64,000 bases of DNA from an uncultured cyanobacterium (GCA_963744145.1 CAVUSO010000001.1:1408001-1472000), one strand, 5' to 3'; counted from the first letter of the stretch, positions 12,133 through 43,912 are shown. Made by a program: numbers and translations. The notes: generated by a model from the sequence alone, not told the origin.

Positions 12133-12522
12133 TGTGGTTTTTGTGGGGAGCCTTTATGGCTAGAATACACTAAGACTTGATCTGAGAGTGATCGAGCCAG
12201 ATCTTGTAGAGGATTTAATTAATCCGATCGCTTTTTCCTAAATTCTTGATCCCATCAGTATAAATCCGAAGATTAATTCTAATACCATAGGTTAAGAATT
12301 ATTGCTTCAGTGAAAATACGGAATCAAGCTCGTGATAAGCTTGAGCCACAAAGGCAGAAAAGCATGATCCTTAAATAAAAATATGGCTTTCAAGAATGCC
12401 GGACAAGTCTTGGTAGGGTATGGGGGAAGTTAAGTCAATCAATTGAGTGACAAAAATACCACGAATCATCGTTGTTATAGCTCATTTCTCAGTCTAATCA
12501 AACACTCATCGAAGGATAGTCT

Positions 12523-23850: not shown

Positions 23851-24444
23851 CTAGAGTAATGTTTTAAAATAAGTTGAAAATTTCTGAGATGGTACACCAA
23901 CCATCAAAGCAGATTCTTGGCGCAAATGAATTTCTACATCTCGTTGACGTTCGGTAAATAAACTAGCTTCTGATAAATGCCGGGAAGTCAGAAAATGAAT
24001 AGTTTGGTTAGCCGAACCGCGCCAACCTTTATTGTCATTTAGTTCCGGAATATATTGTCCGTCAATGAGAACATCAATTCTATTGAGAATTTGATCAATA
24101 GCTGGGTCTAATTTGCTTTGTAATTCCTGTAGTGTAAAACCCGTAAAACACATAATAGAAAGATCCCGATGCTGACGAAGATGGGTAAATAATTCGTTTA
24201 ATGCAGTTGCTTGTAACATTGGTTCACCGCCAGAAATTGTTATTCCATCAATGCCAGCAACTGATAAAATCTGATCAGCTAATTTTATTGGCTCGACTAA
24301 GGTAGCTTCTACCTGGGGAATCCATTCTGGGGAAATACATTCACGACAGCGAAAACAACAACCTTGCATCCAGATCACAAATCTTAGCCCTGGACCAAGA
24401 GTATAAGTAGTGGGACAGATTTCAGCAATATTGAGAAGAGTCAT
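23851..24444 (-). CDS. NrdG-like radical SAM (4Fe-4S) protein
   Basis: LGPGLRFVIWMQGCCFRCREC (CxxxCxxC), GITISGGEPMLQ, IDVLIDGQY, WRGSANQ. No nrdD in the window. Confidence 0.88.
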   Translation of the reverse strand: MTLLNIAEICPTTYTLGPGLRFVIWMQGCCFRCRECISPEWIPQVEATLVEPIKLADQILSVAGIDGITISGGEPMLQATALNELFTHLRQHRDLSIMCFTGFTLQELQSKLDPAIDQILNRIDVLIDGQYIPELNDNKGWRGSANQTIHFLTSRHLSEASLFTERQRDVEIHLRQESALMVGVPSQKFSTYFKTLL

Positions 24445-24446
24445 AT

Positions 24447-25511
24447 TTACAAAGGGATACGATTTTTTTGTTGAGCTTGTTCGTGTTTAATTAGAGCTGT
24501 TGTTAATTCTTGGTCAATTTCTGCTAAATACTGTTGGATATTTTTGACTAATGAATCAACTTTTTGGCGGTCTACTGGCAATAGGGTTCCTAATGTCCGA
24601 TCGGAGTGATAATGGGTAGTTATAGCTGTGCGAATTTCGGCGGTTTCGGTTTGATATTTTTGGAAATCTTCTCGGCATTTTTGTAATTGTTGTTGAGCTT
24701 GATGATAAGATTCTTGTTGTTGGATTAATTCTGATCGTTGTTGTTCAATGGCAGCTAATTCTTTGGCTAAAGCTTCTGATAAACTCTGTCGTTGTACTTG
24801 GGTGAGATTTATTAATTCAGAAACAGAGCCGGAGATACTATTTTCTAGTCTATTTTGTCGGGACTGCCAATAGGTAATCTCTTCTTTGAGAGTAGTTTGC
24901 TGTCGTTGTAAAGCTCCTATTTGCTCATCCAGGTCTGCTTTTTGTTGTTGCAGTGATTTGAGAATTTCTCTTTGTGGTTCTAGTTCAGCAGATTGAGTAG
25001 CGATCGCTTGACGCAAATCTTCTAGGTTAGTTTCTTGCAATGCTGTTTGAATTTCTTGGAGTTGTCTAGCTTTTTCTTTTAATGTTTGTAGATTGGTATT
25101 GTCTTCATTTAACTGTTGTTCTTGACGCAGTAAGTTAGCTGCTGATTGAATTAGTTGGGATTTATCGTTGGCAATTTGTTGGATGGATGCAGTGCGATCG
25201 CTGATTTTCTGTTTGAGTGTTATTGGTACTGGTAATGTGTTCAGGTGAGGGAGCCAAGAATTGAGAATTTCGAGCTGGGTGTTGAGGGTTTTACTCAGAG
25301 CGATCGCCCAAGCGTCTAATGTCTCTGGGTCTACATTTGCCAGTTGTCCTAGCACTTCTGGATGAAAGGTAGATTCCCAAAGGTTTATTCCTGCTGCTAC
25401 TAATTCAAAAGGCAATTTAATAGTATCAAACTCGCTCAAGCTTATTGCTTGTTCTATTTTCTGCACTAAATTTTTAAGAGTTTGTAAATCCTGTTGCTGA
25501 TTTTGCTGCAT
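24447..25511 (-). CDS. Long coiled-coil protein of unknown function
   Basis: Q/E/L-rich heptads over about 250 aa; ATG 25511 has SD-like GAGG; stop lies 2 nt from the radical SAM start. Confidence 0.85.
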   Translation of the reverse strand: MQQNQQQDLQTLKNLVQKIEQAISLSEFDTIKLPFELVAAGINLWESTFHPEVLGQLANVDPETLDAWAIALSKTLNTQLEILNSWLPHLNTLPVPITLKQKISDRTASIQQIANDKSQLIQSAANLLRQEQQLNEDNTNLQTLKEKARQLQEIQTALQETNLEDLRQAIATQSAELEPQREILKSLQQQKADLDEQIGALQRQQTTLKEEITYWQSRQNRLENSISGSVSELINLTQVQRQSLSEALAKELAAIEQQRSELIQQQESYHQAQQQLQKCREDFQKYQTETAEIRTAITTHYHSDRTLGTLLPVDRQKVDSLVKNIQQYLAEIDQELTTALIKHEQAQQKNRIPL

Positions 25512-25563
25512 AAAATCCCTCAATCTATGTAATTAAGTGTTTCTTTGAACAAGTTAAACCTGA

Positions 25564-27174
25564 TTAGTTTTCTGAATTTTCCAGCAGGACGTAACCAGGA
25601 AACATTTTGGAAATAACATTACCTAGTTGATATTCAACTACTTTTCCTCCTCTGGCTTCTTGAATTAATAAATAAGCTATTTGAGACCGATCAACTTTCA
25701 TCCCAACATGATATTTAGCGTTAGTAGAATAGTTGGGTAATTCAATCATGTCGGGTAGAGATTCTTGGTGTTTATTACCTTTAGATAAAAGCTGGACCCA
25801 GAGAGTAATAGCAATGCGATTTTCAACAGGTACAATTGGTTCAGGATAAAATTTTGGTGGTGCTAAAGTATCTAAATTAATACCACCTTCGATCAGAGTA
25901 ATCTCTGGTCTTTCCCGTTTTCCTGTGTGAATATTGATTGTTTCTAACAAAATACCAATGGTATGAACATATTTTTCTGTAGGATCGACTAAACCGTTAG
26001 CAATTAGACAAGCACCATAAGATATAGCATAAGCGCTATTAGTAATATTAAAACTTTTGTCAAGCCGGGGGTCATTTCCACCAATCCCTAAAGCATCGGT
26101 AATGGCTTTTTGAACGAGGATAAACTGACTAAATCCACCTACCATAAAAATACGATCAATTTCCATTCTTTCTTTTTGGATGTAAGATTTAACTTTTTTA
26201 ATGACATCACAAATACCTTGGGTGATCGGAGTAAAAGCCTCGTTAACTTCTCCTAATGTGATTGTGTATTCATTAAATTTATAAGCTTCATCTTGGGCTT
26301 TGTCTTCTGGAGCATTTAGATAGTTAGTTAACCTTTTAGTAGCTCGATCGTGATGGTCAATTTTAATCTTTTCAAAAGCTTGGAGTAAACTAATAAATTC
26401 TGATGTGTTTTCAGCCAAAGGTTTACCATACTTTTTAGTGTAAGCTTGTTGGATGATGCGGCGATCGAAAGCTACTCCAGCAAATTCTAATCCTTGATCT
26501 CCTTGTCCATCAAAATAGAGAACCTCTACTTTATTGTCGCCATAAATCCGACAAAGACTAACATCAAAAGTGCCACCTCCCATATCACAAACGAGTAAGT
26601 TACCGCTAAAAGATTCACTACCTTTTTGTCTAGCACGCCGTTGCGTTTCCCAGGCATAATAGGCAGCAGCAGCAACAGGTTCACTGACAAGTTGGATGAG
26701 TTGATTTTCTAGTCTTAAGTCTTTTTTAATTAATTCTTGTAGACGTTCCCGACCTAAATTATAAATATCACGTTGCCAAATTTCTGGAACTGAGACAACA
26801 ATGCTAGTAATTTCACCTTTTTCACGGCTAAAACTGTAGGATTTTTCCACAGATATTAGCAGTTCACGCAGGTAATCAACGGTAACACTAATGGGGGTAC
26901 GAGGATGGGTAAAATATTTGCTAAACTCCGATTCTGGTAAGGGCAATCTCATTTTAAAATTGCCATAAGTTTCAACAGAAGAATCATGGGCAGCGGTACT
27001 GCGGGCAGCATTACCAATTGTGATCCCCTCTGATTCATAGGCAATGAAGGAGGGGATATATTTTTGTCCATCTGGTGGTGGATAGGGAAATACTTCAAGT
27101 TCTCCGTTGGGGGTAAGGTAGGAGATAATCGAGTTGGTAGTGCCGAAGTCTAGACCGATTTTGTAAGTTGGCAT
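25564..27174 (-). CDS. Atypical Hsp70-family ATPase (not housekeeping DnaK)
   Basis: IGLDFGTTNS, VSVPEIW, LVSEPVAAA, VCDMGGGTFDVS, FMVGGFS; short divergent C-terminus. Start moved to MPTYKIG because the upstream extension runs through a REP. Confidence 0.9.
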   Translation of the reverse strand: MPTYKIGLDFGTTNSIISYLTPNGELEVFPYPPPDGQKYIPSFIAYESEGITIGNAARSTAAHDSSVETYGNFKMRLPLPESEFSKYFTHPRTPISVTVDYLRELLISVEKSYSFSREKGEITSIVVSVPEIWQRDIYNLGRERLQELIKKDLRLENQLIQLVSEPVAAAAYYAWETQRRARQKGSESFSGNLLVCDMGGGTFDVSLCRIYGDNKVEVLYFDGQGDQGLEFAGVAFDRRIIQQAYTKKYGKPLAENTSEFISLLQAFEKIKIDHHDRATKRLTNYLNAPEDKAQDEAYKFNEYTITLGEVNEAFTPITQGICDVIKKVKSYIQKERMEIDRIFMVGGFSQFILVQKAITDALGIGGNDPRLDKSFNITNSAYAISYGACLIANGLVDPTEKYVHTIGILLETINIHTGKRERPEITLIEGGINLDTLAPPKFYPEPIVPVENRIAITLWVQLLSKGNKHQESLPDMIELPNYSTNAKYHVGMKVDRSQIAYLLIQEARGGKVVEYQLGNVISKMFPGYVLLENSEN

Positions 27175-27306
27175 AATTATGTTAATTAACTGATCTATTG
27201 TATTATCCGAACAACAGCAATGCTTATCCCAGATTGCTGAAAACAGCTTCCGGACAGACTTGATCACAGCAAAATCCTGATCCACCTTATTCCTTACCTT
27301 GGACGA

Positions 27307-27336
27307 GTAGGGGCGCAAGAGATCTTGCGCCCCTAC
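27307..27336. repeat. GTAG-type REP palindrome
   Basis: GTAGGGGCGCAAGAGATCTTGCGCCCCTAC. Confidence 0.8.
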
Positions 27337-27452
27337 CAATTATTGCTCGACTAGGTGGTTGGTCTGGCTATCGGTCTCAAAAACCGCCGGGAATTGCTAC
27401 CTTAGTGCGCGGAATACACAATCGCATCTACGATCCAGGGATTATTCTATTG

Positions 27453-27706: not shown

Positions 27707-29170
27707 ATGTCTCGAACTCAATTAGAACTAAAATATATAAAATCTATACATGAAGCATTATATCCCCGTTGGGGTTGGAGTGGTGGATATATTATTGCTA
27801 ACGTTTTTGATAATGGTAAGAAAGTTGTATTAGAATGCTATGCAGAGCCTTCTCTAGAAGAATCTGCTATTCTGAGCGATAAAATACAGAATTGTTTAGA
27901 TACAGTTCCGGAAATTTTTTGGAAATTAATAGGTGGCAGAGATGAAATTAACCTGAAATTAATAAACGAAAGCAGCAGTCAAATAACAGTTAAAAGAAAT
28001 GTTCAAAAACCAGTTATTGAACAACCTTTTCAAACAAGTCTTCAACAACAAGTTACAACCGAAATTTCTAATTTATTAGATATAATTTACAAAAAAGCAG
28101 AGCAAGATATTGAAACTGTAAAAAGAATACAAGATTCTACAATTAACTACTTTTCTACAGCCAGTGATTCGGTAATTCAATGTAGTAAACAAGGAATTTA
28201 TTTTATTCAAAATAATTACACTCAAATAGTTGATGGAACTATTAAAGTTATTGAACCACTTAGACAAGAATTAATAAAATATCCTGATGATTGGCTGAGA
28301 AAACTTAATAAAGATACACTGGCAAAAGTAGATCAGGCTGAAAAAACTTTTTACATAATTAAAGAAAAAAACAAACATAAAAAAACAGATAAACTGGCTA
28401 CAGCTATAATTATTGAAAGTCTCAAGAAATCAACATTGGCTAGGTTTATAGATTCCGGAATATATGTGATTAGCTCATCATTGTTTGATATGCCTGATAA
28501 GTCATTGTCTGATTGCATTAAGCCATTGTCTGATTGGATTAAGTCTTTAGAAGATAAGAATTATCCTTTTCTAAATCAGATGATATTGATATCGGAAAAG
28601 ATAGATGAAGAAATAAGAAAAACGTTTGAACAACCAAAAACGTCAGATTTAATGCTGGCTATGATTGTTCAGATTGCTTGTGTTTATGAACGTGCAAACT
28701 TTCATTCCTCAGAAAAGCAAGCAGAATTAGTCTGTATTTTAATAATTTCATTTTTATGCAGTTTAGCTGTAGATATGGAATTTATAGATTTCTGCAAAAA
28801 GATTATCTCTAATCTAAATTTAGAACAAATTCTGCAAAAAATGGGAATAAGTTATGATAAAGATTTAATTAATAAAATTCAAAAAAATATCGCTCCTAAT
28901 AACAATTTGGTTAATCTTTTACAAAATTTCTTAGTTTCTATTAGTATGAATATAGCTCTTTTCTTGTTGGTTGGTTTTATTGCTAAATATATTTACCAAA
29001 ATTATGATAAGATTTTTGAAATTATAGGATCAATAAACTTATATAATCAAATCAAAGCCGAAGCTAGTAAGTCTGTTTTAGAAATAACACAAAAGACTAA
29101 CATTATTGAAAATGCTATTGTTGAATGCTATCAGACCGGAAAACTTACTAAGACTAGCGATCGCATCTAA
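27707..29170 (+). CDS. AT-rich hypothetical protein, possibly a divergent EcsC-family protein
   Basis: SD AGGAG; DDWL...KVDQAEKT...KLATAIIIE...AMIVQIACVY...KQAELVCILII is reminiscent of cyanobacterial EcsC proteins; hydrophobic C-terminal helices. Confidence 0.7.
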   Translation: MSRTQLELKYIKSIHEALYPRWGWSGGYIIANVFDNGKKVVLECYAEPSLEESAILSDKIQNCLDTVPEIFWKLIGGRDEINLKLINESSSQITVKRNVQKPVIEQPFQTSLQQQVTTEISNLLDIIYKKAEQDIETVKRIQDSTINYFSTASDSVIQCSKQGIYFIQNNYTQIVDGTIKVIEPLRQELIKYPDDWLRKLNKDTLAKVDQAEKTFYIIKEKNKHKKTDKLATAIIIESLKKSTLARFIDSGIYVISSSLFDMPDKSLSDCIKPLSDWIKSLEDKNYPFLNQMILISEKIDEEIRKTFEQPKTSDLMLAMIVQIACVYERANFHSSEKQAELVCILIISFLCSLAVDMEFIDFCKKIISNLNLEQILQKMGISYDKDLINKIQKNIAPNNNLVNLLQNFLVSISMNIALFLLVGFIAKYIYQNYDKIFEIIGSINLYNQIKAEASKSVLEITQKTNIIENAIVECYQTGKLTKTSDRI

Positions 29171-29221: not shown

Positions 29222-29410
29222 CTATTCAGACTGCGATCGCTTCCACATCCTAATCGCCCAATCTAGTTTTCCTCGTTCCTTCTCCAAAAAAGCTTCCGGC
29301 AATTGCCCAGGAAAAGTCAATGGATATGGCATCATATCCCATTCGCAAGTACAGCAGAAGCTTACCTGTCCTTCAACATATTCATTTTGACAAACCGGAC
29401 ACTGTACCAT
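29222..29410 (-). CDS. 62-aa Zn-ribbon protein or truncated gene, paralogous to the dynamin N-terminus
   Basis: SD GAGG then MVQCPVCQNEYVEGQVSFCCTCEWDMMPYPLTFPGQLPEAFLEKERGKLDWAIRMWKRSQSE; shares an 18-aa identical run with the dynamin N-terminus. Confidence 0.75.
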   Translation of the reverse strand: MVQCPVCQNEYVEGQVSFCCTCEWDMMPYPLTFPGQLPEAFLEKERGKLDWAIRMWKRSQSE

Positions 29411-29412
29411 GT

Positions 29413-29562
29413 CTAATTCCTCACAAATCCAAACACAGTCCTCAACATTTCCCCCAACGCTGCTGAGAAGTCGGAGTGACAAATATTGCCACCCCGCTCG
29501 CAGATAGGTCGGAAAATCTCGGATAACTCCTCACCAGGATAATTGCTAAATTCGATTTTGTA
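29413..29562 (-). pseudogene. Remnant of the C-terminal lid of a paralogous CbbX/SpoVK-type AAA ATPase
   Basis: Manual translation YKIEFSNYPGEELSEIFRPICERGGNICHSDFSAALGEML aligns with YKIEFPDYNDNELSQIFINLCQKSGWIVTPEVSARLREIF of the 30822-33377 protein. Confidence 0.7.
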
Positions 29563-29613
29563 TATCCTGATGCTCCTCTATTCCTGTTAAATTTCTTCTT
29601 ATGCTAACAAATC

Positions 29614-30777
29614 TTAAAACTCTTGTACCGAATTCACAGTAATAGAGCGTTTGAGCAGTCGTTTCAGCAGGGTTAAATCCCTTATGGCAAAAAGCCTATT
29701 TCTTATGGTATCTGGTACGACGGAAAACCGCGTTTCCAAAATATCAATGATAGCTTCACGCGCAATTTCCAATTTTGCATCTCGCTCAAAACTGCTCATG
29801 TATGGCTGTCTTTCTTGCTCCATTCTTCTCAATCTTTGAGCATCTTCGCTCTGGCTTTCTGACAGCCGTTGTACAAATTCTTCTACAGATGCTACCGTTA
29901 CTGCCGGGACTAGCAATTCTTCGATCAATTCCAAATTCCCGATCTGATTAATTCTTTCAATCAAATCCGTTGGCACGACTGAAAACCGCGTTTCCAGAAC
30001 TTTGATAGCAGATTTGCGAGCAATTTCCAATTTTCCATCCCGTTCAAAACTAATCATGTATGACATTCGTCTTTGCTCCTCTATTTGCTTGATTTCCGTT
30101 TTAAACTCTTGCTGAATTGCCTCTGGTAAAACCATGATCCATTCAATGAACCGGAGCAGCTCCGATATCTGATTTCTACTATAACCCCGTTGGTAAAGTC
30201 GGCGCACTAAGCTTAACTTTGACTGGAAACGTTGCTCTAAATCGTTGCGTGTTGCCTGGGTTTCTAAATGAGCCGCGATAATTGTAGCAAAGGGATTGGT
30301 GCTTTCTGCTAGGATAGAAGCTGGATAGTCAAGTAGTTTCACAACTGGAAACTGCAAATTGCTCTCAAATCCCCATCGACTATAACTATATCCGGTTGGT
30401 CGCCAATTCCTATTTTCGTCTCCTAATATTGCAAAACTGAACACTTTTTGCCGATAGCGATCAAACAATCTATGATTGTAGATATACATCCGTTCGGCAA
30501 AATCTAACTGCTCTTGTCCTTGGATTTCGACGTGAATTAATACCAGGGCATCTTCACCTGAATTCAACCATACCTTTATTAGCTTATCTGCTAAACGTCT
30601 CCCGGTTTCGGCATCACGAATCAGTTCTTGCAATTCGGTATCTAAGGTTTCATATCCTCTCTCCCAATTAATATCACTGTGAACAGCGGGAAAACAAAAA
30701 GCCATAAATGCTTCAAAATAGATAGTGAGTGCTTCTTTCCAAGCACTATCGTAATCCGATCGCAGTTCTTCTACCAT
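29614..30777 (-). CDS. Rpn / PD-(D/E)xK putative transposase-like nuclease with a duplicated DUF4351-like C-terminal domain
   Basis: DYDSAWKEAL...RRLADKLIKVW...VLIHVEIQG...FAERMYIYNHRLFDRY; two C-terminal repeats YMxSFERDxKLEIAR..I..LETRFSVVP. Start moved to ATG 30777. Confidence 0.85.
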   Translation of the reverse strand: MVEELRSDYDSAWKEALTIYFEAFMAFCFPAVHSDINWERGYETLDTELQELIRDAETGRRLADKLIKVWLNSGEDALVLIHVEIQGQEQLDFAERMYIYNHRLFDRYRQKVFSFAILGDENRNWRPTGYSYSRWGFESNLQFPVVKLLDYPASILAESTNPFATIIAAHLETQATRNDLEQRFQSKLSLVRRLYQRGYSRNQISELLRFIEWIMVLPEAIQQEFKTEIKQIEEQRRMSYMISFERDGKLEIARKSAIKVLETRFSVVPTDLIERINQIGNLELIEELLVPAVTVASVEEFVQRLSESQSEDAQRLRRMEQERQPYMSSFERDAKLEIAREAIIDILETRFSVVPDTIRNRLFAIRDLTLLKRLLKRSITVNSVQEF

Positions 30778-30821
30778 ATAGTAACCTTCTACTCCTCTAA
30801 TTGATTGTAAAAAGACATCAC

Positions 30822-33377
30822 TTAACCCTCCCAATCTAGTATATCCTCTAACTTAAATGTCTTCATTGCATCCCCAGTTAAATTATCTCGTACAATTCGA
30901 TTTTTTAGTCGGGCCACTGTTTTTTCGTAAAAATTACGCACCTCTCTAGCATTACCAAAATTTCTCCCTTTATTTTGATACATTTTCTGAAAAATTTCCC
31001 GCAAACGTGCTGATACTTCTGGGGTAACAATCCACCCAGATTTCTGACACAGATTGATAAAAATTTGGGACAATTCATTATCATTATAGTCGGGAAATTC
31101 AATCTTGTAGGCAATTCGGGAAGCGATCCCGGAGTTAGCAGAGATAAACTGTTCCATTTCACGGGAATATCCTGCTAAAATAACTACTAGGCGATCGCGT
31201 TCGTTTTCCATAACTGGTACTAAAGTATCGATCGCTTCTCGCCCAAAATCCCACTGAGCTTCACCTTGTCGAGACAGAGCATAAGCTTCATCAATAAACA
31301 ACACTCCATCCAAAGCAGATTGAATTGCTTCCGCAGTTTTCAGTGCTGTTTGTCCTACATATCCAGCTACTAATTTTTCTCTATTTACTTCGATAAATTG
31401 TCCTTTTTGTAATAACCCCAACGCCTTAAAAATTTGTCCAATTAATCGCGCTATTGTAGTTTTTCCCGTTCCAGGATTTCCAGTAAATAACAGATGTCGT
31501 GTTTCTATTTCCTCCTTAGTTTGCATTCCTGCTTCCCGCAGACGTTGATTGGCAATTTGAGTATTAACGATTTCCCGAATCGCTTGTTTTACTGAATGCA
31601 ACCCAATCATCTGATCTAATTCTTGCAATAATTTCTGTAAAATTTCCTCATTTTTTCTTCCCTCTTGACGATACTGAGTAGGCAAATCTACTATTTGAAA
31701 AGGTTCTCGTAACGGATCAAGATTCTGTTCAACAACTCGCTGACTTCGCCGCTCATCTATCTGGTTAAACAAATTTTCTACTAACCCAGCATTTCCGAAA
31801 TTCTGGTCGCGTCTTTCATAAAGCTGAGTAAACAAATTCCTTAGCACTTCTGTCAATTCGGGTGTAATTGAACACTGCACTCGCGATACTCGTTGTTGAA
31901 AAATTGCTAATAATTCGGCAGGGGTATAATCTTCAAAAATAATTTCATTAGCAAAGCGACGATTTAACCCAGGATTTGAGTTAATAAAATCTTCCATCTG
32001 AACTGGGTATCCAGCTACAATTACTGCCAATCGATGCCGATCGTCTTCCATCCGTTTCAGCAAGGTATTTATTGCTTCTTGCCCAAAATCATTTCCTCCA
32101 CCCTGATTCAATGTATAAGCTTCGTCAATAAATAACACACCGTCAAGGGCTTCATCGATAATTTCATTGGTACGAATAGCTGTTTGTCCTATATATCCTG
32201 CTACTAAATCTCGCCCTCCTACTTCTCGCACATGACCCCGCTTTAACAGTCCCAAATCACGATATATTTCGCCAATTAATCTGGCAACTGTAGTTTTTCC
32301 GGTGCCAGGATTGCCTTTAAAAATATAATGTAGCCGAGCCGGGTCGGTGCTAATTCCTTGTTGTACCCGTTTTTGCTCAACTTCAAGGATTTGCATTCGT
32401 CGTCGAATGGTATCTTTTACTGATGTCAGACCAATCATTTGCTGTAATCGTTCTTGTGCGGGTTCTGTACTCATATCTCCTGAGAGCCAATTTAGCCGAC
32501 GTGCTTCCGTTAGGGATATTTGACGAGCAGCTTGAAAGCGATCGCACCAATGTTTTAGAGAGTGGTTTTCTGCGGCGATCCAAACAGATAATTTTTCTGC
32601 TGTTATCCAATCTACTATCTTCTGGTGTTTGAGTCGGAAATAATCATTTAAAGCTCTAATTTCGCTTGGATCTGGAGAAGTTAGGCGAACCAAATTAAAC
32701 CCACGATTTGCTAATAGATTGCGGTTAGTGATCAGGTTTGCTAAAAATGTAAATCCTATGCGATCGCAAAAGTTTTTCAATTCGGTGCGATTTTCATGGT
32801 GAAAAATTAAAATACAAAGGTTATTATTATGAGGAGGTAAGCGCGACCAATCTACGACCCGACCAAATAATTCGCGTCGGTTGTTGAAATGCTCTAAGTC
32901 TTCAGCGTGAGAAAAGATAATGGCAGATTTTTGAGATTTGTCCTCCATGACGGTTTGAAAAATCGGCAAGATGTTAATATCCTGTAACCGTCTGGTTGGG
33001 AAATTTGGTGATGTGGGTGTTGGTAATGGTGGATCATTTGTTTGGGTTGATCGTCTACCAAGCAATCCGCGCTTAGATCCCAATGGACCAGGTGTTACCC
33101 GCATTTGGGCTGAGGATACGGAATTGAGGGGAGTTTGAGGTTGGAGACGACAGCGATCGCGCGATCGTTGATCGAGAAAATATAGCTTTTGAACACCTGA
33201 ATAAAATAGTATCCGCTCATAACCTTGAGAACGAAGATATTCGTGCAACACTTCCTCGATATTTAGCAGCAATAAATCTGGAGTGCAAAAAGTATCGCTG
33301 GTGTTCACTCCATAGAAAATCAGGAAGCGATCGCCTGATTGTAAATTTAATTCTGATGTAACTCTGGCAACTGACAT
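30822..33377 (-). CDS. Tandem AAA+ ATPase, CbbX/SpoVK/EccA family, with a ~300-aa N-terminal region
   Basis: Two modules, each with MIGL..VK, GNPGTGKTT (Walker A), LVAGY.GQTA, VLFIDEAY (Walker B), VIxAGY, an Arg-finger region and NFGNA lid. Confidence 0.93.
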   Translation of the reverse strand: MSVARVTSELNLQSGDRFLIFYGVNTSDTFCTPDLLLLNIEEVLHEYLRSQGYERILFYSGVQKLYFLDQRSRDRCRLQPQTPLNSVSSAQMRVTPGPLGSKRGLLGRRSTQTNDPPLPTPTSPNFPTRRLQDINILPIFQTVMEDKSQKSAIIFSHAEDLEHFNNRRELFGRVVDWSRLPPHNNNLCILIFHHENRTELKNFCDRIGFTFLANLITNRNLLANRGFNLVRLTSPDPSEIRALNDYFRLKHQKIVDWITAEKLSVWIAAENHSLKHWCDRFQAARQISLTEARRLNWLSGDMSTEPAQERLQQMIGLTSVKDTIRRRMQILEVEQKRVQQGISTDPARLHYIFKGNPGTGKTTVARLIGEIYRDLGLLKRGHVREVGGRDLVAGYIGQTAIRTNEIIDEALDGVLFIDEAYTLNQGGGNDFGQEAINTLLKRMEDDRHRLAVIVAGYPVQMEDFINSNPGLNRRFANEIIFEDYTPAELLAIFQQRVSRVQCSITPELTEVLRNLFTQLYERRDQNFGNAGLVENLFNQIDERRSQRVVEQNLDPLREPFQIVDLPTQYRQEGRKNEEILQKLLQELDQMIGLHSVKQAIREIVNTQIANQRLREAGMQTKEEIETRHLLFTGNPGTGKTTIARLIGQIFKALGLLQKGQFIEVNREKLVAGYVGQTALKTAEAIQSALDGVLFIDEAYALSRQGEAQWDFGREAIDTLVPVMENERDRLVVILAGYSREMEQFISANSGIASRIAYKIEFPDYNDNELSQIFINLCQKSGWIVTPEVSARLREIFQKMYQNKGRNFGNAREVRNFYEKTVARLKNRIVRDNLTGDAMKTFKLEDILDWEG

Positions 33378-33430
33378 TTTAGTTTTTACCTGATTGGTAA
33401 GGAATAAAAAATAAATAACTTGATGATTTA

Positions 33431-33472
33431 GTTCGTAGTAAGCGCTTTAGCGCTAAAGCGCTTACTACAAAC
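33431..33472. repeat. Palindromic REP-like element
   Basis: GTTCGTAGTAAGCGCTTTAGCGCTAAAGCGCTTACTACAAAC; a related half-site GTTCGTAGTAGGGACTTCAGTCCC lies near 41314. Confidence 0.75.
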
Positions 33473-33554
33473 CTTAAGATTTTCCCATCTGTTAATTTTA
33501 CCAAGTTATCTATCAAGCCAATCTACCTGTCTGATCTAGCATAATTTTATAAGA

Positions 33555-35960
33555 TTATAGCAAACTTCTAATCTCGATTAATTTATCTAGATATTGCTGA
33601 AGATCAATTTTATCTTTTTCTAATCTCTGTCGAATTTCAATAGTTTCTACTTCTCTTGTTTCTCGTTCTTTCAACAATTGATCAAACTTGGTTTGAAAAT
33701 TATTAATGTAATTATTAATTTGGTCTTCAGCATTTTTAAAATCTTCTGACATTTGTTTTTCAATGACATTTTTTAACAAAACTTTAATTTGCGCTACTTG
33801 GGGATCTATTTTTGACGTTATTTCTTGTTTTATTCTGTTCAAATCAATCTCATAATAGTCAACGGTTTCTTCATAATGAACCTCGACTTCAGTCAATATA
33901 TCATCATTACAGCAACGCTTTTCACGGTTGAATTCTTTGCGCGTTCTCCAGAAAACTTCCTGCTGTTTTAAAACTTGGGCATCGATCCCCGTAAATTGAA
34001 ATCTGGGAAATTGGATTTGACTATTATTCAGTTCTATTCGTAGACTTTGTCCTAAATAGTTAGAAAGCTCTTTGGAAATAGATTGGGTAGTCTGCTGAAT
34101 TTCTTGGACAAGTTTCTCTCTAATTTCTGTTCCATCTCGGACAAGCTTATCTTGGGTATCTAACCACCAGGTCTGAATCACAGGAGCGCAGTATTTATTT
34201 ATTGTATCTACAATTTTATCAGCATCATCGCGGTTATTAACTCTAATTTTGTAAGGATCTGAACTACGATTTCCAGTAAAATCATCAAAGATTTTTTTTA
34301 AATGATCTAATAAGCTATCTGACGATGAATCAGGATTTTGCTTATTCTCACTATTGGCAACCCGGTCGATCTCTATACCAATATTCTTTTTAGCTTCTTG
34401 AGCAAATTGCTTAATTCCGCGATTAAATCCATCAATTAGGTTACCTTTTTCCTTTTTAAGAGACTTGTTTATGTTTTCTACTTCTTTTTTGGCGATATCA
34501 GCGCGTTTCCTATATCCCTGTACTGTACTTTTGAGAGTTTCAAGTTCCGTTTCCCATCCTCGGATTTCTGTATTTAACATATCCTCTATAGATTGGGCGC
34601 TTTTCTCTATTTTTGCCAATACATCATTTAGCAGATTCCAACCGGAGTTCTGAACTACTTTTTGAATCACTGAATTTTCGATCTTGGGAATACCACTTTC
34701 TGGTAAAGCTTGTTCAGCAGCTTCAGCATCTTCCAACAAGATTCTCTTCCCATTTGGATCTGTTATAATCAGATAACGTCCAAAGTTATTTTGAAAATCC
34801 TCTTTATCTTGCTGAATTGCTGTTTGATTAAGAATTAATTTAGATAACAATCCTTGTAAAGCACTAACAGGATAAATATTTGGGTTGGGAATACCAAAAT
34901 CAATCAAAATTTTTCTTAAATCATTAATAACATCGTCAATAGCTCGATCACGAACTTGCTTTCTATCAATTTTATTCAGAATAAAAAAGATTTTACCCTG
35001 GTCACTAATCAAAGAATCTTTTCGTTCCTTTAAGATTTTAATCAATTCGGAATTAGTCTGATCTTTAAAAGAAGAATAATCTAATATAAATAAAATAACA
35101 TCACAAGTTCGCAGCGATTCCAAGGCAGTTTTCTTCAAGATAGTGGTATCAAAATTAGCAGATTGCCATTCATTAGGTCCAGGAGTATCTACCAAAGTAA
35201 ACCCTGTCAAGGAAGAAAAATTACTGATTGCTTCAATCGGATATTGAAGTTCAAATCTAGTGGTGCGATCGCGATTGTTGGTGGCTCGTATTTCGTGGGT
35301 ACGTTCTAAAAATTTCTGCTTAATTATCTGGGCATTTCCCTCCACAAGTACCGAAGGTTTTTTATGCGCTTCTCGATATTCCAGCAGTTTGGGAGTTGCT
35401 GAAGTAGCGATCGGACGAATATCGGTGCGACAGACAGTACAAGCTTCAGATTCACTAGCTAGTACATCAGCACCTATGATCGCATTGAGAAAGGTACTTT
35501 TACCTGCTTTCATTGCTGCAATCACAGCCACTTGATATTTTTGCTCTTTCAAAGCTGTTAAAGCTTGAGTTAAATCTTCTTCAATACTTTGGAATTCCTT
35601 AGTTTTATTTCCCTCCTTTAATCGTCCACTTCTAAATTCTTTAATGTACTGTAAAAGACAAGTACCAGTTTCAGAAAGACGGTTATATGCTCGTTGAAAT
35701 TGTTCAGAAGGTTTTGCTGGATCAGACTGGGGAGAATTAGTCATCATATTTAACAATCGGTCTAGTTGTACTTTTTGATCTTGATACTTAAGCCAAATCT
35801 GCTTTGCCCAAAACAGTTTTGCTCGTTCCTTCTCCAAAAAAGCTTCCGGTAATTGTCCAGGAAACGTTAGGGGATAGGAAGTCAAATCCCATTCACAGAC
35901 AGAACAAAAATTGACCTGAGCTTCAATAAATTCAGTTTGACAAACTGGACAATTAGCCAC
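33555..35960 (-). CDS. Dynamin-like GTPase (CrfC/YjdA-like) with an N-terminal Zn-ribbon module
   Basis: G1 AAMKAGKST, G2 EACT, G3 LVDTPGPNE, G4 LNKID, VSALQG, long helical stalk; N-terminal CPVC...CSVC. GTG start at 35960 preferred. Confidence 0.9.
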   Translation of the reverse strand: MANCPVCQTEFIEAQVNFCSVCEWDLTSYPLTFPGQLPEAFLEKERAKLFWAKQIWLKYQDQKVQLDRLLNMMTNSPQSDPAKPSEQFQRAYNRLSETGTCLLQYIKEFRSGRLKEGNKTKEFQSIEEDLTQALTALKEQKYQVAVIAAMKAGKSTFLNAIIGADVLASESEACTVCRTDIRPIATSATPKLLEYREAHKKPSVLVEGNAQIIKQKFLERTHEIRATNNRDRTTRFELQYPIEAISNFSSLTGFTLVDTPGPNEWQSANFDTTILKKTALESLRTCDVILFILDYSSFKDQTNSELIKILKERKDSLISDQGKIFFILNKIDRKQVRDRAIDDVINDLRKILIDFGIPNPNIYPVSALQGLLSKLILNQTAIQQDKEDFQNNFGRYLIITDPNGKRILLEDAEAAEQALPESGIPKIENSVIQKVVQNSGWNLLNDVLAKIEKSAQSIEDMLNTEIRGWETELETLKSTVQGYRKRADIAKKEVENINKSLKKEKGNLIDGFNRGIKQFAQEAKKNIGIEIDRVANSENKQNPDSSSDSLLDHLKKIFDDFTGNRSSDPYKIRVNNRDDADKIVDTINKYCAPVIQTWWLDTQDKLVRDGTEIREKLVQEIQQTTQSISKELSNYLGQSLRIELNNSQIQFPRFQFTGIDAQVLKQQEVFWRTRKEFNREKRCCNDDILTEVEVHYEETVDYYEIDLNRIKQEITSKIDPQVAQIKVLLKNVIEKQMSEDFKNAEDQINNYINNFQTKFDQLLKERETREVETIEIRQRLEKDKIDLQQYLDKLIEIRSLL

Positions 35961-35994
35961 ACCTACTCTCACTAAGAAATTAGTTGACAATCTT

Positions 35995-37500
35995 TTAAGA
36001 AGATATCTTACCAAATTGTTCCGGTTTAACCTGCCGTCCTTTCACTTTCTCTATATTCTGATATTCCTGTCTTGCCTGTGGATTACATTCTAGCGGTCTA
36101 CCCTGTACCCCTTCTTCCTTCAAAGCATCAAAAATAGCGTCAGCATTGTCTTTTGTAGCTTTCTCATCTACTATAGTTTGACTAAATGTGTTAATCGAAA
36201 CCGAGTTGGCTCCAAATTCTTTCTCTGGACTAATTATGGTGACCACTTCATCACCAGCTATATTTTTTACCTTGACTACATAAGCATTTCTTTGGTCATC
36301 ACCTTCATAAACAGCGTCAGATTCTCTATTCTCAAGATTGTATCCCAATGACTCAAGCGTTTCTACAATTCTGTCGGCAATTTCCACCCGCAATTGCGAG
36401 CCTAATATTGTTAGTTTTGCCTGTTCGACAATTTCTCCTAGTTTTGGTTGTAAAGCAGTTATTTTTTCTCCTAACTCCTTCAGTTGTTCAATGGTAAGCG
36501 TCGATTCACCAGTTTTTAATTGCGATTCCAACTGCTGCAATTGTTCTGCATACTGGCTCAAGCGACCATTAACCCAGTAATCTACTTCCAATTGAAATTT
36601 CTCAGCCTCATTACCCTGACCAACTTCAATTTCGCATTGTCGATTAGCTTGTACTTCAGTAATTAAAGTTTTTAAATCCTCCAATGCAGCACTATAAAGT
36701 AACAACCATTCTTGCTCTTTTTGTTCCAATTCCAACCGTAAATCTGCCAAATCTAAATAAGTTTGTTGAGTTGTGGCGATCGCTGCTTCAGTGACACCAG
36801 CTTGGATATTAGTTCGAGCTATTTCCAATCCCCTACGCAAATCTGCCAAACGTCCAGGAGCAAATCGCTCATGTTGGTAATCCCGATTAATTTGTGACCA
36901 AACTGTTTCTACATCTGCAAGTAACTCTTTAGCTATCTGTGCTTTTCGCTGTTTTTCCTGTACAAGGTCTGTCACCACCTGATCAATCTGCTGCTGAAGA
37001 ATTTGTTGTCCCTGTTCTCTTGCTTGCCGTTCCTCTCCAATCAACTGAGTAAATTTTTGGTCTTGTTGTTTAATTAATCGGGTATATTCCTGCCGTTGTT
37101 CAGAGGTAATTCGCAAATATTCACTACGTTGCTGCTCAAACCCTTGACGCATAGCCGATTCTAAACGATTTGTCTCTCGCTCTAACGCCTGTTGTTGACG
37201 ATACTCGGTCTCACGTACTGCTGTTTGAAATTCTTCTCGTTGTTTCTGCAAACGCTTTTGGGTGTTTTTTTCTGTATCGGCTAGACTGCTTCTGAGTTTC
37301 TGTGTTTCTTGTTCCTGCTGTCGAGCGCGTTGTTCTAAAGGTGCTAAACGTTGCTGAAACTCTTGCCGTGCTTGCTCTCTAACTGCATTCAACCGCTCTG
37401 GTAAATCCTGTTGTACAGACCGTAATCGGCTCTCCTGTTCCCGGAGTCGTCGCAACTCTTGGTCTTCAACCTGGACATACCGTCGTTTTTCGCCACTCAT
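35995..37500 (-). CDS. Coiled-coil protein with a small C-terminal alpha/beta domain; first gene of the dynamin-AAA cluster
   Basis: About 190 aa of R/Q/E heptads, then HERFAPG, EVDYWVNG, LESLGY...VVKVKNIAGDEVVTII; SD GGAG. Confidence 0.88.
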   Translation of the reverse strand: MSGEKRRYVQVEDQELRRLREQESRLRSVQQDLPERLNAVREQARQEFQQRLAPLEQRARQQEQETQKLRSSLADTEKNTQKRLQKQREEFQTAVRETEYRQQQALERETNRLESAMRQGFEQQRSEYLRITSEQRQEYTRLIKQQDQKFTQLIGEERQAREQGQQILQQQIDQVVTDLVQEKQRKAQIAKELLADVETVWSQINRDYQHERFAPGRLADLRRGLEIARTNIQAGVTEAAIATTQQTYLDLADLRLELEQKEQEWLLLYSAALEDLKTLITEVQANRQCEIEVGQGNEAEKFQLEVDYWVNGRLSQYAEQLQQLESQLKTGESTLTIEQLKELGEKITALQPKLGEIVEQAKLTILGSQLRVEIADRIVETLESLGYNLENRESDAVYEGDDQRNAYVVKVKNIAGDEVVTIISPEKEFGANSVSINTFSQTIVDEKATKDNADAIFDALKEEGVQGRPLECNPQARQEYQNIEKVKGRQVKPEQFGKISS

Positions 37501-37972: not shown

Positions 37973-38449
37973 TTACAGGTTACATTTTTCAAGACGTGCA
38001 AAAAGATGTTCAGACCATACTCTACTACATATCCGACTAGGAAAATCTGGACATACTGCCCAAGGGAAATGACCATTGAAAAGATATTGCCCTGGAGCAG
38101 GTAAAACTATTGCCCGATCTTCCTCCCACCAACCAATGCGATCGCCAAAAATATTCCAGACTTTTTCATAGTCCTGTTTAAACTTTTCCCTCAGACTTCT
38201 ATTAAGATAATCATATATTTCTTTCTGGATAGAAAAGCCAAACCGATCATGACTAGCTGTTACCCAAAGTTGGTCAATTTTCAGAAGGTCTTCGCAGGGA
38301 AAATTCTGAATATCTGCGACGCTTAGATGATGATTTGTTTCCATTACTTCTAACATTTTTTGAGCTGTTTCGTTGTTAGCAGCATACCAATTCTTTGCGG
38401 CTAGTAAGCTTTCTAAATTTGTGTAATCTATATTTTTAGATGAGTGCAT
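37973..38449 (-). CDS. Stand-alone GUN4 domain protein
   Basis: IDYTNLESLLAAKNWYAANNET, IQNFPCEDLLKIDQLWVTASHDRFGFSIQKEIY, FGDRIGW, GHFP. Confidence 0.9.
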   Translation of the reverse strand: MHSSKNIDYTNLESLLAAKNWYAANNETAQKMLEVMETNHHLSVADIQNFPCEDLLKIDQLWVTASHDRFGFSIQKEIYDYLNRSLREKFKQDYEKVWNIFGDRIGWWEEDRAIVLPAPGQYLFNGHFPWAVCPDFPSRICSRVWSEHLFARLEKCNL

Positions 38450-41492: not shown

Positions 41493-41565
41493 CGAGCATG
41501 GAGGGATTCGAACCCCCGACCCTTAGAACCGGAATCTAATGCTCTATCCACTGAGCTACATGCCC
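41493..41565 (-). tRNA. trnR-CCG: tRNA-Arg(CCG)
   Basis: GGGCATGTAGCTCAGTGGATAGAGCATTAGATTCCGGTTCTAAGGGTCGGGGGTTCGAATCCCTCCATGCTCG; cloverleaf, anticodon CCG, no encoded CCA. Confidence 0.97.
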
Positions 41566-41942: not shown

Positions 41943-43313
41943 ATGGAAGCAAAAATTATCCTCACTATTATCGAAGGTGAGTTAATGGGACAAGAATTTA
42001 TATTTGAAGACCGTAATACAAGTGTAATCGGTCGTGCTAAGGATTGTTATCCCCACATCCCTGATAACGATACCCATCGCATTATTTCTCGTTATCATTG
42101 CTTATTGGATATCAATCCTCCAGATATTCGGGTCCGAGATTTAGGAAGTAAAAACGGTACTTATGTAAACGGGCAAAAAATCAGTAAACCGACCGTCACT
42201 CAAACGGAGGAAGGAGATCCTCTATATAATTTTCCTGAACAGGATTTACAAGCAGGAGATGAGGTGAAACTAGGTAAAAATATATTTAGAGTATATGTAG
42301 AAGTAATTAGAGAAGAAGATGAAACCCTGAATGTGGGTGGAGGAGGGTTTTATCCACCAACTCTGTCAGCACATAAACCCAATATGTTGGATTTAGCTAA
42401 TCGATTAATCCAACAAGCAAACACAGGACAAAAGAACCTCCAAGCAATTCGCGATCATCAGATTGTTAAATTATTAGGAAAAGGTAGATATGGAGAAGTT
42501 TATTTAACCGTAAATCAGCACACTGGTGCGGAAGTAGCATTAAAAATTATGCTCCCAGAAGTTTTAGCTAATCAAAGAGCGATCGGGAGGTTTGAGTTTG
42601 ATATTGAAAATGCCAAAGCATTGCAACATCAGCATATAGTCAAATTACTAGATTATGGTTATTGGTACGGCACCTTCTTTTTTACCACCGAATATTGTGC
42701 AGGAGGTAGTATAATTGATTTAATGGCACAAAAGGGAGGAAAATTATCGATTCCCGAAGCAGTAGGAATTATTTTACCAGTTTTAGATGGGTTAGAATAT
42801 GCCCACAATGCGGAAATTCCTTATGTAAAAAATGCGAATGGTAGTTTTAGTCAGGGGAAAGGATTAGTACATCGAAACTTAAGACCAAGTAATATTTTGA
42901 TTAGTCACATAGATCAACAACAAGTTGTCAAAATTGCCAATTATGGATTAACCAAGTCCTTTGATTTAGCGGGATTAAGTGGTCAAACCATGAGTGGTCT
43001 TAAAGTAGAGATACCCGATTTTATTCCCCGACAACAGATCATTAACTTTCAATATGCTAAACCAGAAGTAGATGTTTGGGCAGCAGCGGCAATTTTTTAT
43101 TTCATGTTAACAGGATGTTTACCGCGTGAGTTTAAAGCTGGAGAAGATCCATTTTTAAACGTATTACAAAATCGAGCAGTACCAATCCATCAACGTGATC
43201 CTGCTATTCCTACCCAGTTAGCAAAATTAATGGATCTAGCTTTAATAGATTCACCAGAAATTCGGTTTAAAAATGCACGAGACTTCAAGCGATCGCTAGA
43301 GAGCGTCATCTAA
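41943..43313 (+). CDS. FHA domain + Ser/Thr kinase-fold protein (probable pseudokinase)
   Basis: FHA IGR...ISRYH...DLGSKNGTYVNG; kinase GKGRYGEV, VALK, but HRNLRPSN and IANYG in place of HRD and DFG/DYG. Confidence 0.9.
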   Translation: MEAKIILTIIEGELMGQEFIFEDRNTSVIGRAKDCYPHIPDNDTHRIISRYHCLLDINPPDIRVRDLGSKNGTYVNGQKISKPTVTQTEEGDPLYNFPEQDLQAGDEVKLGKNIFRVYVEVIREEDETLNVGGGGFYPPTLSAHKPNMLDLANRLIQQANTGQKNLQAIRDHQIVKLLGKGRYGEVYLTVNQHTGAEVALKIMLPEVLANQRAIGRFEFDIENAKALQHQHIVKLLDYGYWYGTFFFTTEYCAGGSIIDLMAQKGGKLSIPEAVGIILPVLDGLEYAHNAEIPYVKNANGSFSQGKGLVHRNLRPSNILISHIDQQQVVKIANYGLTKSFDLAGLSGQTMSGLKVEIPDFIPRQQIINFQYAKPEVDVWAAAAIFYFMLTGCLPREFKAGEDPFLNVLQNRAVPIHQRDPAIPTQLAKLMDLALIDSPEIRFKNARDFKRSLESVI

Positions 43314-43408: not shown

Positions 43409-43912
43409 ATGTCAGCCACAGTTATCCTCACCGTCATCTCTGGTAGCCTGAAAGGGCTAGAATTTGAATTTAGTGATCACATTACCTTCATAATTGGTCG
43501 TGGGAAAGACTGCTATATCAGACTACCAGATGACGAAATCCATCTTAACATTTCCCGTCATCACTGTCTTTTTAATATCAACCCACCCCTGATCTGGGTC
43601 AGAGATTTAGGTAGTAAAAACGGTACTTATGTAAACGGGCAAAAAATCGGGCAACGACGGTCACACCAAAGCTTAGATTATGGTCTAGAAATGAATTTAC
43701 CAGAGTACAATCTAACTAATGGGGATGAAATTGCGATCGGACAGGTAATCTTCCGAGTGAGTATTTCCCTCGACAATAGTAATTTGAACTTACCCATGAT
43801 TGAAGGTTATACCTTACTCAGAGAATTAGGAAAAGAAGGAAACAAAATAGTTTACTTAGCTAACAATCATATAACTGGACAATTAGTAGCCTTAACGGTC
43901 AGGCTACCATAA
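43409..43912 (+). CDS. FHA protein with a truncated kinase N-lobe (partial paralogue of the upstream gene)
   Basis: Same FHA; shares a near-identical ~47-nt stretch; ends just after GYTLLRELGKEG...GQLVAL. Confidence 0.8.
   Translation: MSATVILTVISGSLKGLEFEFSDHITFIIGRGKDCYIRLPDDEIHLNISRHHCLFNINPPLIWVRDLGSKNGTYVNGQKIGQRRSHQSLDYGLEMNLPEYNLTNGDEIAIGQVIFRVSISLDNSNLNLPMIEGYTLLRELGKEGNKIVYLANNHITGQLVALTVRLP

Follow-up and report, generated by a model that had tools for sequence, protein, structure and literature searches.

A predicted zinc-ribbon head on a dynamin-family GTPase and on a 62-residue reading frame in a conserved cyanobacterial gene cluster

The window analysed here is a stretch of 64,000 nucleotides (nt) from the genome of an uncultured cyanobacterium (GCA_963744145.1, CAVUSO010000001.1:1408001-1472000), and positions without another label are counted from its first letter. 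Two of its genes, encoding a dynamin-family GTPase of 801 amino acids (aa) and a separate open reading frame (ORF) of 62 aa, here called ORF62, begin with the same small module, the head, which is predicted to form a zinc ribbon (ZnR). Both lie in a conserved cluster, organised as a 501-aa coiled-coil protein, a head-bearing gene with a variable C-terminal part (slot A), an AAA+ ATPase, a head-bearing coiled-coil gene (slot B), an Hsp70-like ATPase, a 358-aa coiled-coil protein and an NrdG-like radical SAM protein (Table 1). In the window, the dynamin occupies slot A, which is bounded by the 501-aa and AAA+ genes; ORF62 has the position of slot B, which follows the AAA+ gene.

ORF62 and the N-terminus of the dynamin align in BLASTP without gaps, with 40 of 62 residues identical and 48 of 62 similar (E 7e-32), and they have in common an 18-aa run, YPLTFPGQLPEAFLEKER. 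At the DNA level, 132 of 186 nt are identical over the whole module and 41 of 43 nt in one tract of it (Table 1). The similarity ends at the module edges, and the 60-nt flanks of the two copies match at 11 and 13 of 60 positions, which is chance level. The head is present in the 7.7 Mb genome in two copies, ORF62 and that of the dynamin. An earlier reading made from the sequence alone (the sequence-only reading) had placed the same N-terminal module on both genes; its coordinates, the identical 18-aa run and the 41 matching nucleotides were all borne out, while the spacing that it gave between the two Cys pairs (x12) had to be corrected, as the pattern is C-x2-C-x11-C-x2-C. Chance similarity or low complexity was rejected as the source of the repeat (E 7e-32), and duplication of a whole 5' gene end was rejected because the flanks of the two copies are unrelated.

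The four Cys residues (C4, C7, C19 and C22) and a Trp are invariant in 30 of 30 aligned copies of the head from the clusters. The same alignment conserves (G/E)WDLTPYP..G.IP..FL.KE..K..WAK..W, in which (G/E)WDLTPYP forms a loop and the helix motif ..IPxxFLxKExxKxxWAKxxW is described as amphipathic. The AF2 (AlphaFold2) model of dynamin residues 1-71, with a predicted local distance difference test score (pLDDT) of 90.5, consists of two short hairpins or knuckles followed by a helix at residues 39-70, and short paired strands surround both Cys pairs, as in a zinc-ribbon fold. Some homologues of the head have sub-threshold matches to Pfam zinc ribbons, such as Zn_Ribbon_1 (22.8 bits, cut-off 25). 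ORF62 itself matched no family of Pfam, NCBIfam, PADLOC or PHROGs at E <= 0.01. Among solved structures, the head had no significant counterpart by Foldseek (best E 0.67, the NZF of HOIL-1L), by VIA (best Z 4.0, helix-dominated) or by a PDB profile search (best E 0.006, LysW), and the protein atlas returned only unnamed small clusters (0.88-0.90). Judged from sequence and model, the head appears to be a short zinc ribbon, about 60 aa including its helical tail and without a closer known relative, and to constitute a real N-terminal domain that has hitherto had no family model. It would be expected to bind zinc. Many zinc ribbons bind nucleic acids, and the weak best matches of the head include the ribbons of Nop10 and ribosomal L32; one head-bearing protein, P0120, also carries a domain similar to the C-terminal domain of the RNA polymerase alpha subunit. 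Nevertheless, it is very improbable that the head anchors its partner domains on DNA or RNA, considering that none of the structural searches above found a significant match to a nucleic-acid-binding ribbon, and that the conserved head surface is, in our reading of the alignment, acidic and aromatic (EWD, PYP, E, W) and not basic.

The head is not confined to this dynamin family. An exhaustive phmmer search of 1.84 billion cluster representatives at E <= 1e-3 returned 145 proteins including the query, and the match starts no later than residue 9 in 130 of the 144 other representatives (counted by hand from the table). Pfam domains were assigned at E <= 1e-3 in the first 74 representatives and at E <= 1e-12 in the last 70, for which weak repeats would escape detection. 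The C-terminal domains found among the 144 were GUN4 (22), FGE-sulfatase (15), WD40 (10, plus one weak match), TPR (4, plus one weak match), SepF (2), FtsK (1) and SH3_3 (1), and Dynamin was found in none. The remaining representatives have coiled-coil-like or no Pfam matches, and many of them are short; P0145, which has immunoglobulin domains, was discarded as a false positive. The helix of the head usually continues directly into a coiled coil, the neck, which is followed by the C-terminal domain. A profile search of a second database gave 112 proteins, of which all those named by organism are cyanobacterial and those with descriptive names are named only after the C-terminal domain. About 74 of them have GUN4, mostly from Arthrospira/Limnospira, and 12 have FGE-sulfatase (hand count). 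As far as these sequences tell, the head is portable, with different C-terminal domains behind one N-terminal module. The sequence-only reading had expected this, and the check that it proposed, a hidden Markov model (HMM) of the head followed by a list of the fused domains, supports it. Its description of the fused domains as effectors is not supported, as GUN4, FGE-sulfatase, WD40 and TPR are ligand-binding or scaffolding domains and none is an obvious effector.

Linkage between the head and the cluster was analysed from both sides. From the side of the head, 20 loci of other cyanobacterial genomes (+/-10 kb) were searched with the cluster proteins of the window. The same cluster was present in two of them, L030 and L039, neither of which has a dynamin. 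L030 possesses a ZnR-coiled-coil gene straight after the AAA+ gene, and L039 possesses four ZnR genes (104 aa, WD40 plus TPR, WD40 and WD40) between the AAA+ and the Hsp70-like genes. From the side of the cluster, about 186,000 species genomes were scanned with an alignment of the 501-aa protein, which gave 26 loci. Among the genera represented are Aerosakkonema, Trichodesmium, Calothrix, Stigonema, Planktothrix, Oscillatoria, Hormoscilla, Microcoleus, Arthrospira, Prochloron and Brasilonema, and one locus belongs to a metagenome-assembled genome (MAG) of Desulfobacterales. According to the module HMM and tblastn maps, at least one ZnR gene is present in 16 of the 26 loci, and a ZnR gene in 15 of the 18 that contain the AAA+ gene. 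When the window, L030, L039 and the degraded L057 are added, ZnR genes occur in 18 of 22 AAA+-holding clusters, and 7 of 19 ZnR-bearing clusters have at least two. Among the ten loci without a ZnR gene, six are cut by contig ends near the 501-aa or AAA+ gene and two hold a lone or fragmentary 501-aa gene; the other two are L081, which is on the same contig as L056 and has an FHA-coiled-coil gene in slot A, and L082, which ends after 5.8 kb. The association of the head with AAA+, coiled-coil, Hsp70-like and radical SAM genes, predicted from the window alone, is thereby found across other genomes.

Seven ZnR genes were found in slot A. Besides the dynamin of the window, these encode a GUN4 protein (L059), a 201-aa protein (L060), WD40 proteins (L065, L067) and FGE-sulfatase proteins (L073, L083). 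In slot B, the ZnR gene starts at most about 40 nt from the AAA+ stop in eight clusters; seven of these genes encode ZnR-coiled-coil proteins of 220-370 aa without Pfam domains, most with a conserved C-terminal tail, and the eighth (L060) encodes two heads and TPR. A further ZnR-coiled-coil gene is located about 330 nt past the AAA+ gene in L059. The more distant ZnR genes, that coiled-coil gene and the arrays of L080 and L039, lie 0.3 to 1.8 kb off the AAA+ gene, and in Trichodesmium and Prochloron the ZnR gene has another place within the cluster. The AAA+-ZnR pair is intact in L069 and L070, though 3.7 kb from the remaining cluster genes. Heads of slot A and slot B are 44-58% identical in L059, L060, L065 and L067, where each pairs with the same slot of other genomes; the two heads of the window are 65% identical and are each other's best match. 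The contents of the slots suggest that the cluster takes interchangeable head-marked partners, and the near-constant ZnR-coiled-coil protein of slot B could be a core component.

The cluster of Arthrospira platensis PCC 7345 (L080:14351-21468) has five tandem ZnR genes after the AAA+ gene, three of them with GUN4, and dozens of ZnR-GUN4 variants from Arthrospira/Limnospira are present in the database. Heads within tandem arrays are 82-100% identical (L080, L039). The tails of slot-B proteins combine Gly or Asp with aromatic residues (..RDIDGDTLYD, ..GGPSLYDAW, ..RDGAGDYFGL, ..NNLWNL, ..DDVWDL; Table 1), and, as pure speculation, the ATPases or the radical SAM enzyme might recognise these peptides. 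A 'SWLPxL' motif common to the 358-aa and slot-B proteins was not significant (E 0.28).

The open frame of the dynamin extends over 33555..36014, with a homology-supported GTG start at 35960. Dynamin_N (PF00350) matches residues 144-330 with 66.7 bits (gathering cut-off 27), which places the protein in the dynamin family. The score against the CrfC equivalog NF007368, 63 bits against a cut-off of 1146, does not make it a CrfC, and the match to PADLOC LeoBC is weak (E 2e-15). The dynamin body begins at about residue 103, where the head-less homologues begin. Among the best 120 homologues of this body (47-58% identity), only three, P0160, P0164 and P0180, possess the head; the other 117 begin right at the post-linker residues or bear a hydrophobic N-terminal extension, which we read as a probable transmembrane segment. 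A head-less dynamin paralogue of 724 aa (55% identity) is encoded elsewhere in the same genome. Among 381 genomes of the same order, 67 encode the dynamin family, and head and dynamin were joined in one match only in this genome. The GC content of the dynamin body is 31-35%, compared with 38-42% for neighbouring core genes. On sequence grounds, the dynamin is best described as rare, recruited cargo and not as core. This agrees with the earlier suggestions that such dynamins normally lack the head and that this one is variable cargo, the sole dynamin among the slot-A genes.

ORF62 reads from an ATG at 29410 to a stop at 29222, and a longer frame with a TTG start reaches 29482. It ends with ..MWKRSQSE*; slot-B relatives with similar sequences at this point (..IWARSQSD.., ..MWKQSQNQ..) run on for 150-300 aa of coiled coil. 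A remnant of the slot-B coiled coil or tail was not found in the window by tblastn, and a promoter and terminator scan around ORF62 gave nothing above shuffles. A 406-aa gene of a multi-copy family separates ORF62 from the AAA+ gene. This family has 13 matches in the same genome, including five long paralogues at 48-58% identity, and the 406-aa protein has no Pfam, NCBIfam or PHROGs match. Because the paralogues align only from residue 15-22 or so, translation probably starts at the ATG of residue 20. A relative of this gene, in the form of a fragment, is located upstream of the Hsp70-like gene in L059. On the other side, a 487-aa ORF converges on ORF62, with stops 52 nt apart. The 487-aa ORF has a GC content of 27-30% in a region of 38-42%, has no relative in any fetched cluster locus and looks like recently acquired DNA; a 494-aa ORF at the same place in L030 proved unrelated. 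The octamer GCGATCGC, presumably the cyanobacterial HIP1 palindrome, occurs in the last codons of ORF62 (K-R-S-Q, 29233-29240) and at the end of the 487-aa ORF (29157-29164), about 70 nt apart.

The simplest reading is that ORF62 is most likely a slot-B gene truncated by insertion and deletion. The sequence-only reading had treated it as a purpose-built separate unit; its slot-B position, slot-B-like end and flanking insertions resemble a truncated gene instead, and this part of that reading is probably wrong. ORF62 could be functional because short head-only relatives exist elsewhere, and its frame is intact, with GAGGA 9 nt upstream of the ATG and with the four Cys and the Trp kept. It might then act as a stand-alone head, for example as competitor or regulator at the docking site of the dynamin head, matched to it by gene conversion. 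The 41/43 tract exceeds the best agreement of either copy with any other locus (37 and 38 of 43), and only 7 of 415 between-locus pairs reach this value, all of them the same slot in two loci. At residues identical between ORF62 and the dynamin head, the codon is also identical in a fraction of 0.64, compared with 0.52 +/- 0.08 in comparable between-locus pairs, an excess of only about 1.5 standard deviations. A short gene-conversion tract between the two copies is plausible on this comparison, not proven. The idea that the conserved DNA is a recombination point receives modest support from the tract and the codon share. A functional stand-alone ORF62 nevertheless seems unlikely to us, given that codon excess, the length and conserved tail of its positional relatives, its location between two insertions and the many short database entries that may be contig fragments.

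Table 1. Coordinates and supporting evidence of the features of the window and of related genes in other cluster loci
Feature	Coordinates	Strand	Evidence
ZnR + helix head of dynamin gene, residues 1-62	35775..35960	-	module HMM E 2e-29
ORF62, head only, slot-B position	29222..29410	-	module HMM E 5e-30
43-nt tract, 41/43 identical to 35822-35864	29272-29314	-	DNA comparison
ZnR-dynamin fusion, 801 aa, slot A	33555..35960	-	Dynamin_N PF00350
501-aa coiled-coil protein with C-terminal globular part, core marker	35995..37500	-	relatives in 26 loci
851-aa AAA+, core, N-terminal 310 aa + two CbbX/SpoVK/EccA-type modules	30822..33377	-	PF00004 x2, AAA_lid_6 x2
406-aa gene, multi-copy family, between AAA+ gene and ORF62	29614..30834	-	own-genome search
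487-aa ORF, single-copy, no known family, convergent on ORF62	27707..29170	+	own-genome search
Hsp70-like ATPase, 591 aa, frequent cluster member	25564..27339	-	PF00012 78 bits
358-aa coiled-coil protein, cluster member	24447..25523	-	homologues in cluster loci
197-aa NrdG-like radical SAM protein, cluster member	23851..24444	-	Fer4_12 106 bits
Slot-B gene with Gly/Asp + aromatic tail	L059:15751-16635		
Slot-B gene with Gly/Asp + aromatic tail	L065:10457-11110		
Slot-B gene with Gly/Asp + aromatic tail	L066:13091-14005		
Slot-B gene with Gly/Asp + aromatic tail	L069:5210-6298		
Slot-B gene with Gly/Asp + aromatic tail	L076:14054-14857		
Slot-B gene with Gly/Asp + aromatic tail	L030:5809-6627		
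Second Hsp70-like gene	L059:16661-17815		
Second Hsp70-like gene	L066:14028-15182		
Second Hsp70-like gene	L067:16592-17851		

The 501-aa protein matches no family of Pfam, NCBIfam or PADLOC. Its relatives are full-length and 58-85% identical in 23 of the 26 loci, all from filamentous cyanobacteria; beyond these, two matches are partial and one relative, in the Desulfobacterales MAG, is 40% identical. Among 401 genomes sampled from the same class, the 501-aa protein and the N-terminal domain of the AAA+ protein were detected in the same six genomes. The AAA+ protein scores 516.8 bits with TIGR02881 (cut-off 422.95; two stretches summed), also matches TIGR03922 and TIGR02880, and stays just under the cut-offs of the CbbX and EccA models. 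These scores assign it to the SpoVK/CbbX/EccA clade, an assignment by sequence that does not imply the named function. Its N-terminal 310 aa (32448-33377, minus strand) give an alpha/beta model with pLDDT 77 and a disordered insert at residues 80-129, for which the best folds are the AAA+ modules of Cdc48, ORC/Cdc6, RuvB, RFC and Vps4 (Foldseek E 1.5e-3 to 1e-2). In the model, this part looks like a degenerate third AAA+ module, and we read 'FLIFYGVNTSD' at the position of the would-be Walker A motif.

The Hsp70-like ATPase scores far under the DnaK equivalog cut-offs, and homologues with 40-82% identity are present in 13 cluster loci, some of them cut by the end of the locus or contig. A divergent second Hsp70-like gene (21% identity to that of the window) lies directly after the slot-B gene in three clusters (Table 1). 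The 358-aa protein has only matches of the coiled-coil type (SMC, JetC), and a relative fused to FHA is encoded in L056. The radical SAM protein scores 94 bits with the NrdG model TIGR02491 (cut-off 126), and its cluster homologues are 53-76% identical. Just upstream of the 501-aa gene lies a gene for a stand-alone GUN4 protein of 158 aa (37973-38449, minus strand); GUN4 is also the commonest domain behind the head and fills slot A of the closest related cluster, L059. In L056, an FHA-coiled-coil gene occupies slot A and a second FHA protein is encoded after the radical SAM gene (7252-8166 and 11630-12523). The window also encodes an FHA-kinase and an FHA protein (41943-43313 and 43409-43912), about 4.4 kb from the 501-aa gene. 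A search of the window with Rfam found only a tRNA (41493-41565).

We hold with moderate confidence that head-bearing proteins are regular, variable parts of a conserved operon, that the dynamin was recruited into it, that ORF62 is a remnant, and that the head docks these proteins onto a scaffold. In this genome, a complete dynamin of a normally head-less family would have received the head and a short linker by fusion and so come to fill slot A. The slot-B gene would have lost its coiled coil to incoming foreign DNA of low GC content, leaving the bare head, ORF62, which a multi-copy element would have parted from the AAA+ gene. Head and neck may form oligomers and attach the variable domain to the coiled-coil scaffold, which the AAA+ and Hsp70-like ATPases may build up or dismantle. 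The C-terminal domain would then set the sensing or the action, in this case GTP-driven membrane remodelling. ClpB and Hsp70 form a bi-chaperone that offers a functional analogy for the AAA+ and Hsp70-like pair, and ATP-driven remodelling of an assembly is suggested because the AAA+ protein adjoins an Hsp70-like ATPase and coiled-coil proteins.

Several observations weigh against this explanation. The head was detected in 27 of the 401 class genomes (25 with a single-sequence query), of which 24 lack the 501-aa protein and the AAA+ N-terminal domain, and head and cluster markers were found together in only 3 of the 401. The head is single-copy in 25 of the 27 genomes (14 candidates scored per genome), and the ZnR genes outside the cluster are located beside genes for P-type ATPases, PGI and a branched-chain permease, a response-regulator kinase and a cyclase, or ChlM, the Mg-protoporphyrin methyltransferase. 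Clusters without a ZnR gene keep the AAA+ N-terminal domain (L056/L081 with FHA in slot A, L082 with none in 5.8 kb), and the head is absent from the 501-aa, AAA+, Hsp70-like, 358-aa and radical SAM proteins according to Pfam and the module HMM. Short ORFs consisting of the head alone or of the head and a short coil also occur elsewhere (104 aa in L039; representatives of 70-89 aa). In the tree, which places both copies only weakly, the dynamin head falls closest to heads of slot A and ORF62 closest to one of slot B, so that the dynamin head is at most a candidate slot-A orthologue. Because 24 of 27 head-bearing genomes lack the cluster, the head is not solely an address tag for this AAA+ protein, and the proposal that it serves this machine only is contradicted by single-copy genes in ordinary neighbourhoods. 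The head probably works without the machine as well, and its independent role would most simply be to self-associate or to dock at a coiled-coil tip; the cluster would exploit that role.

It is possible, although we consider it doubtful, that the head is nothing but a general domain by which cyanobacterial coiled-coil proteins self-associate or are localised, for example at the membrane, the divisome or the nucleoid, without specific contact to the AAA+ or 501-aa proteins. The ZnR-coiled-coil subunits of the cluster would then merely have been duplicated and diversified in place. SepF, FtsK and dynamin act at membranes or at the division site, and all three are fusion partners of the head; the genomes without the cluster, with their single copies in housekeeping-like neighbourhoods, fit the same explanation, and local duplication is indicated by the 83-100% identity of heads within tandem arrays. 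Such a general role does not account for two fixed slots beside the AAA+ gene across distant genera, for the close spacing of the AAA+ and slot-B genes in eight clusters, or for the AAA+-ZnR pair that holds together in L069 and L070 despite the gap. Coupling as tight as this would usually go with physical interaction.

The effector-associated domains (EADs; EAD1-EAD10) of multicellular bacteria are small terminal adaptors that couple variable effectors to NTPase cores (Kaur, Burroughs, Iyer, Aravind 2020, PMC7159879). As far as the text of that paper describes them, the head is similar in its small size, terminal position and lack of enzymatic features, in its presence on several proteins of a neighbourhood and at other places in the genome, in having FGE-sulfatase, GUN4, TPR, beta-propellers and FtsK as C-terminal partners, in that neighbouring copies are sometimes closest relatives, and in the enrichment of its carriers in filamentous taxa. 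The EADs differ in being all-alpha or alpha+beta, with no zinc ribbon among those described in the text (PMC7159879). With about 60 aa and no match to a catalytic family, the head has the size and the non-enzymatic character of such a domain. It differs in that no invariant core protein bears it, and most head-bearing genomes have a single copy and no such system. Pfam includes EAD models, and ORF62 matched no Pfam family at E <= 0.01, so that membership in these families is not indicated. The likeness to EADs had been drawn in the sequence-only reading.

According to the same paper, DO-GTPases of GTPase-centric conflict systems carry zinc ribbons at their N-termini, and an Hsp70 homologue can be encoded nearby (PMC7159879). 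The fusion in the window is similar in having an N-terminal zinc ribbon on a GTPase and an Hsp70 homologue in the neighbourhood; its GTPase is Dynamin_N and not a DO-GTPase. L030 has two DO-GTPase genes (PF19993 and PF19975; 103-987 and 2144-3151) within 6 kb of the cluster, and their Pfam matches start at residue 6-11, without a head. The core found here, with the 501-aa coiled coil, the double AAA+ and the NrdG-like radical SAM protein, is absent from the systems described in the text of PMC7159879, and the word 'dynamin' is absent from that text. CrfC and LeoBC of the Eleos defence system resemble the window dynamin as full dynamin-family GTPases; the window dynamin differs in scoring far under the CrfC cut-off, and no LeoA-like partner was noted. 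Similar to the remodellers CbbX, SpoVK and EccA, the AAA+ protein has two AAA modules with AAA_lid_6 and scores above the SpoVK cut-off; it differs from them in the extra N-terminal 310 aa and in a context without sporulation, Rubisco or type VII secretion. Neither the head nor the cluster was found described in the full texts of published papers (including PMC7159879, PMC8195603 and PMC11090510), whose supplements and source data might list them.

A more far-reaching and tentative interpretation is that the head represents a new EAD-like adaptor family and forms, together with the 501-aa protein, the AAA+ protein with its inactive third module, the Hsp70-like ATPase and the radical SAM protein, a hitherto undescribed system of filamentous cyanobacteria, serving conflict or cell fate, that depends on NTP and is gated by chaperones; its sensor or effector would be swapped behind the head. 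The swapped part would be GUN4, FGE-sulfatase, WD40, TPR or, as here, a membrane-remodelling dynamin, and the exchange may be aided by recombination in the conserved head-coding DNA.

The head deserves at least its own family model, as its carriers are currently named only by the C-terminal domain. If it indeed plugs domains into an ATPase-driven coiled-coil machine, both the adaptor family and the core system would be new, and would bring the logic of conflict systems to the ecologically important Trichodesmium, Arthrospira/Limnospira, Planktothrix and Microcoleus. It would also provide an entry point to the many proteins named 'GUN4 domain-containing' or 'SUMF1-like' with long N-terminal extensions, and to the recruitment of a bacterial dynamin to a defined partner.

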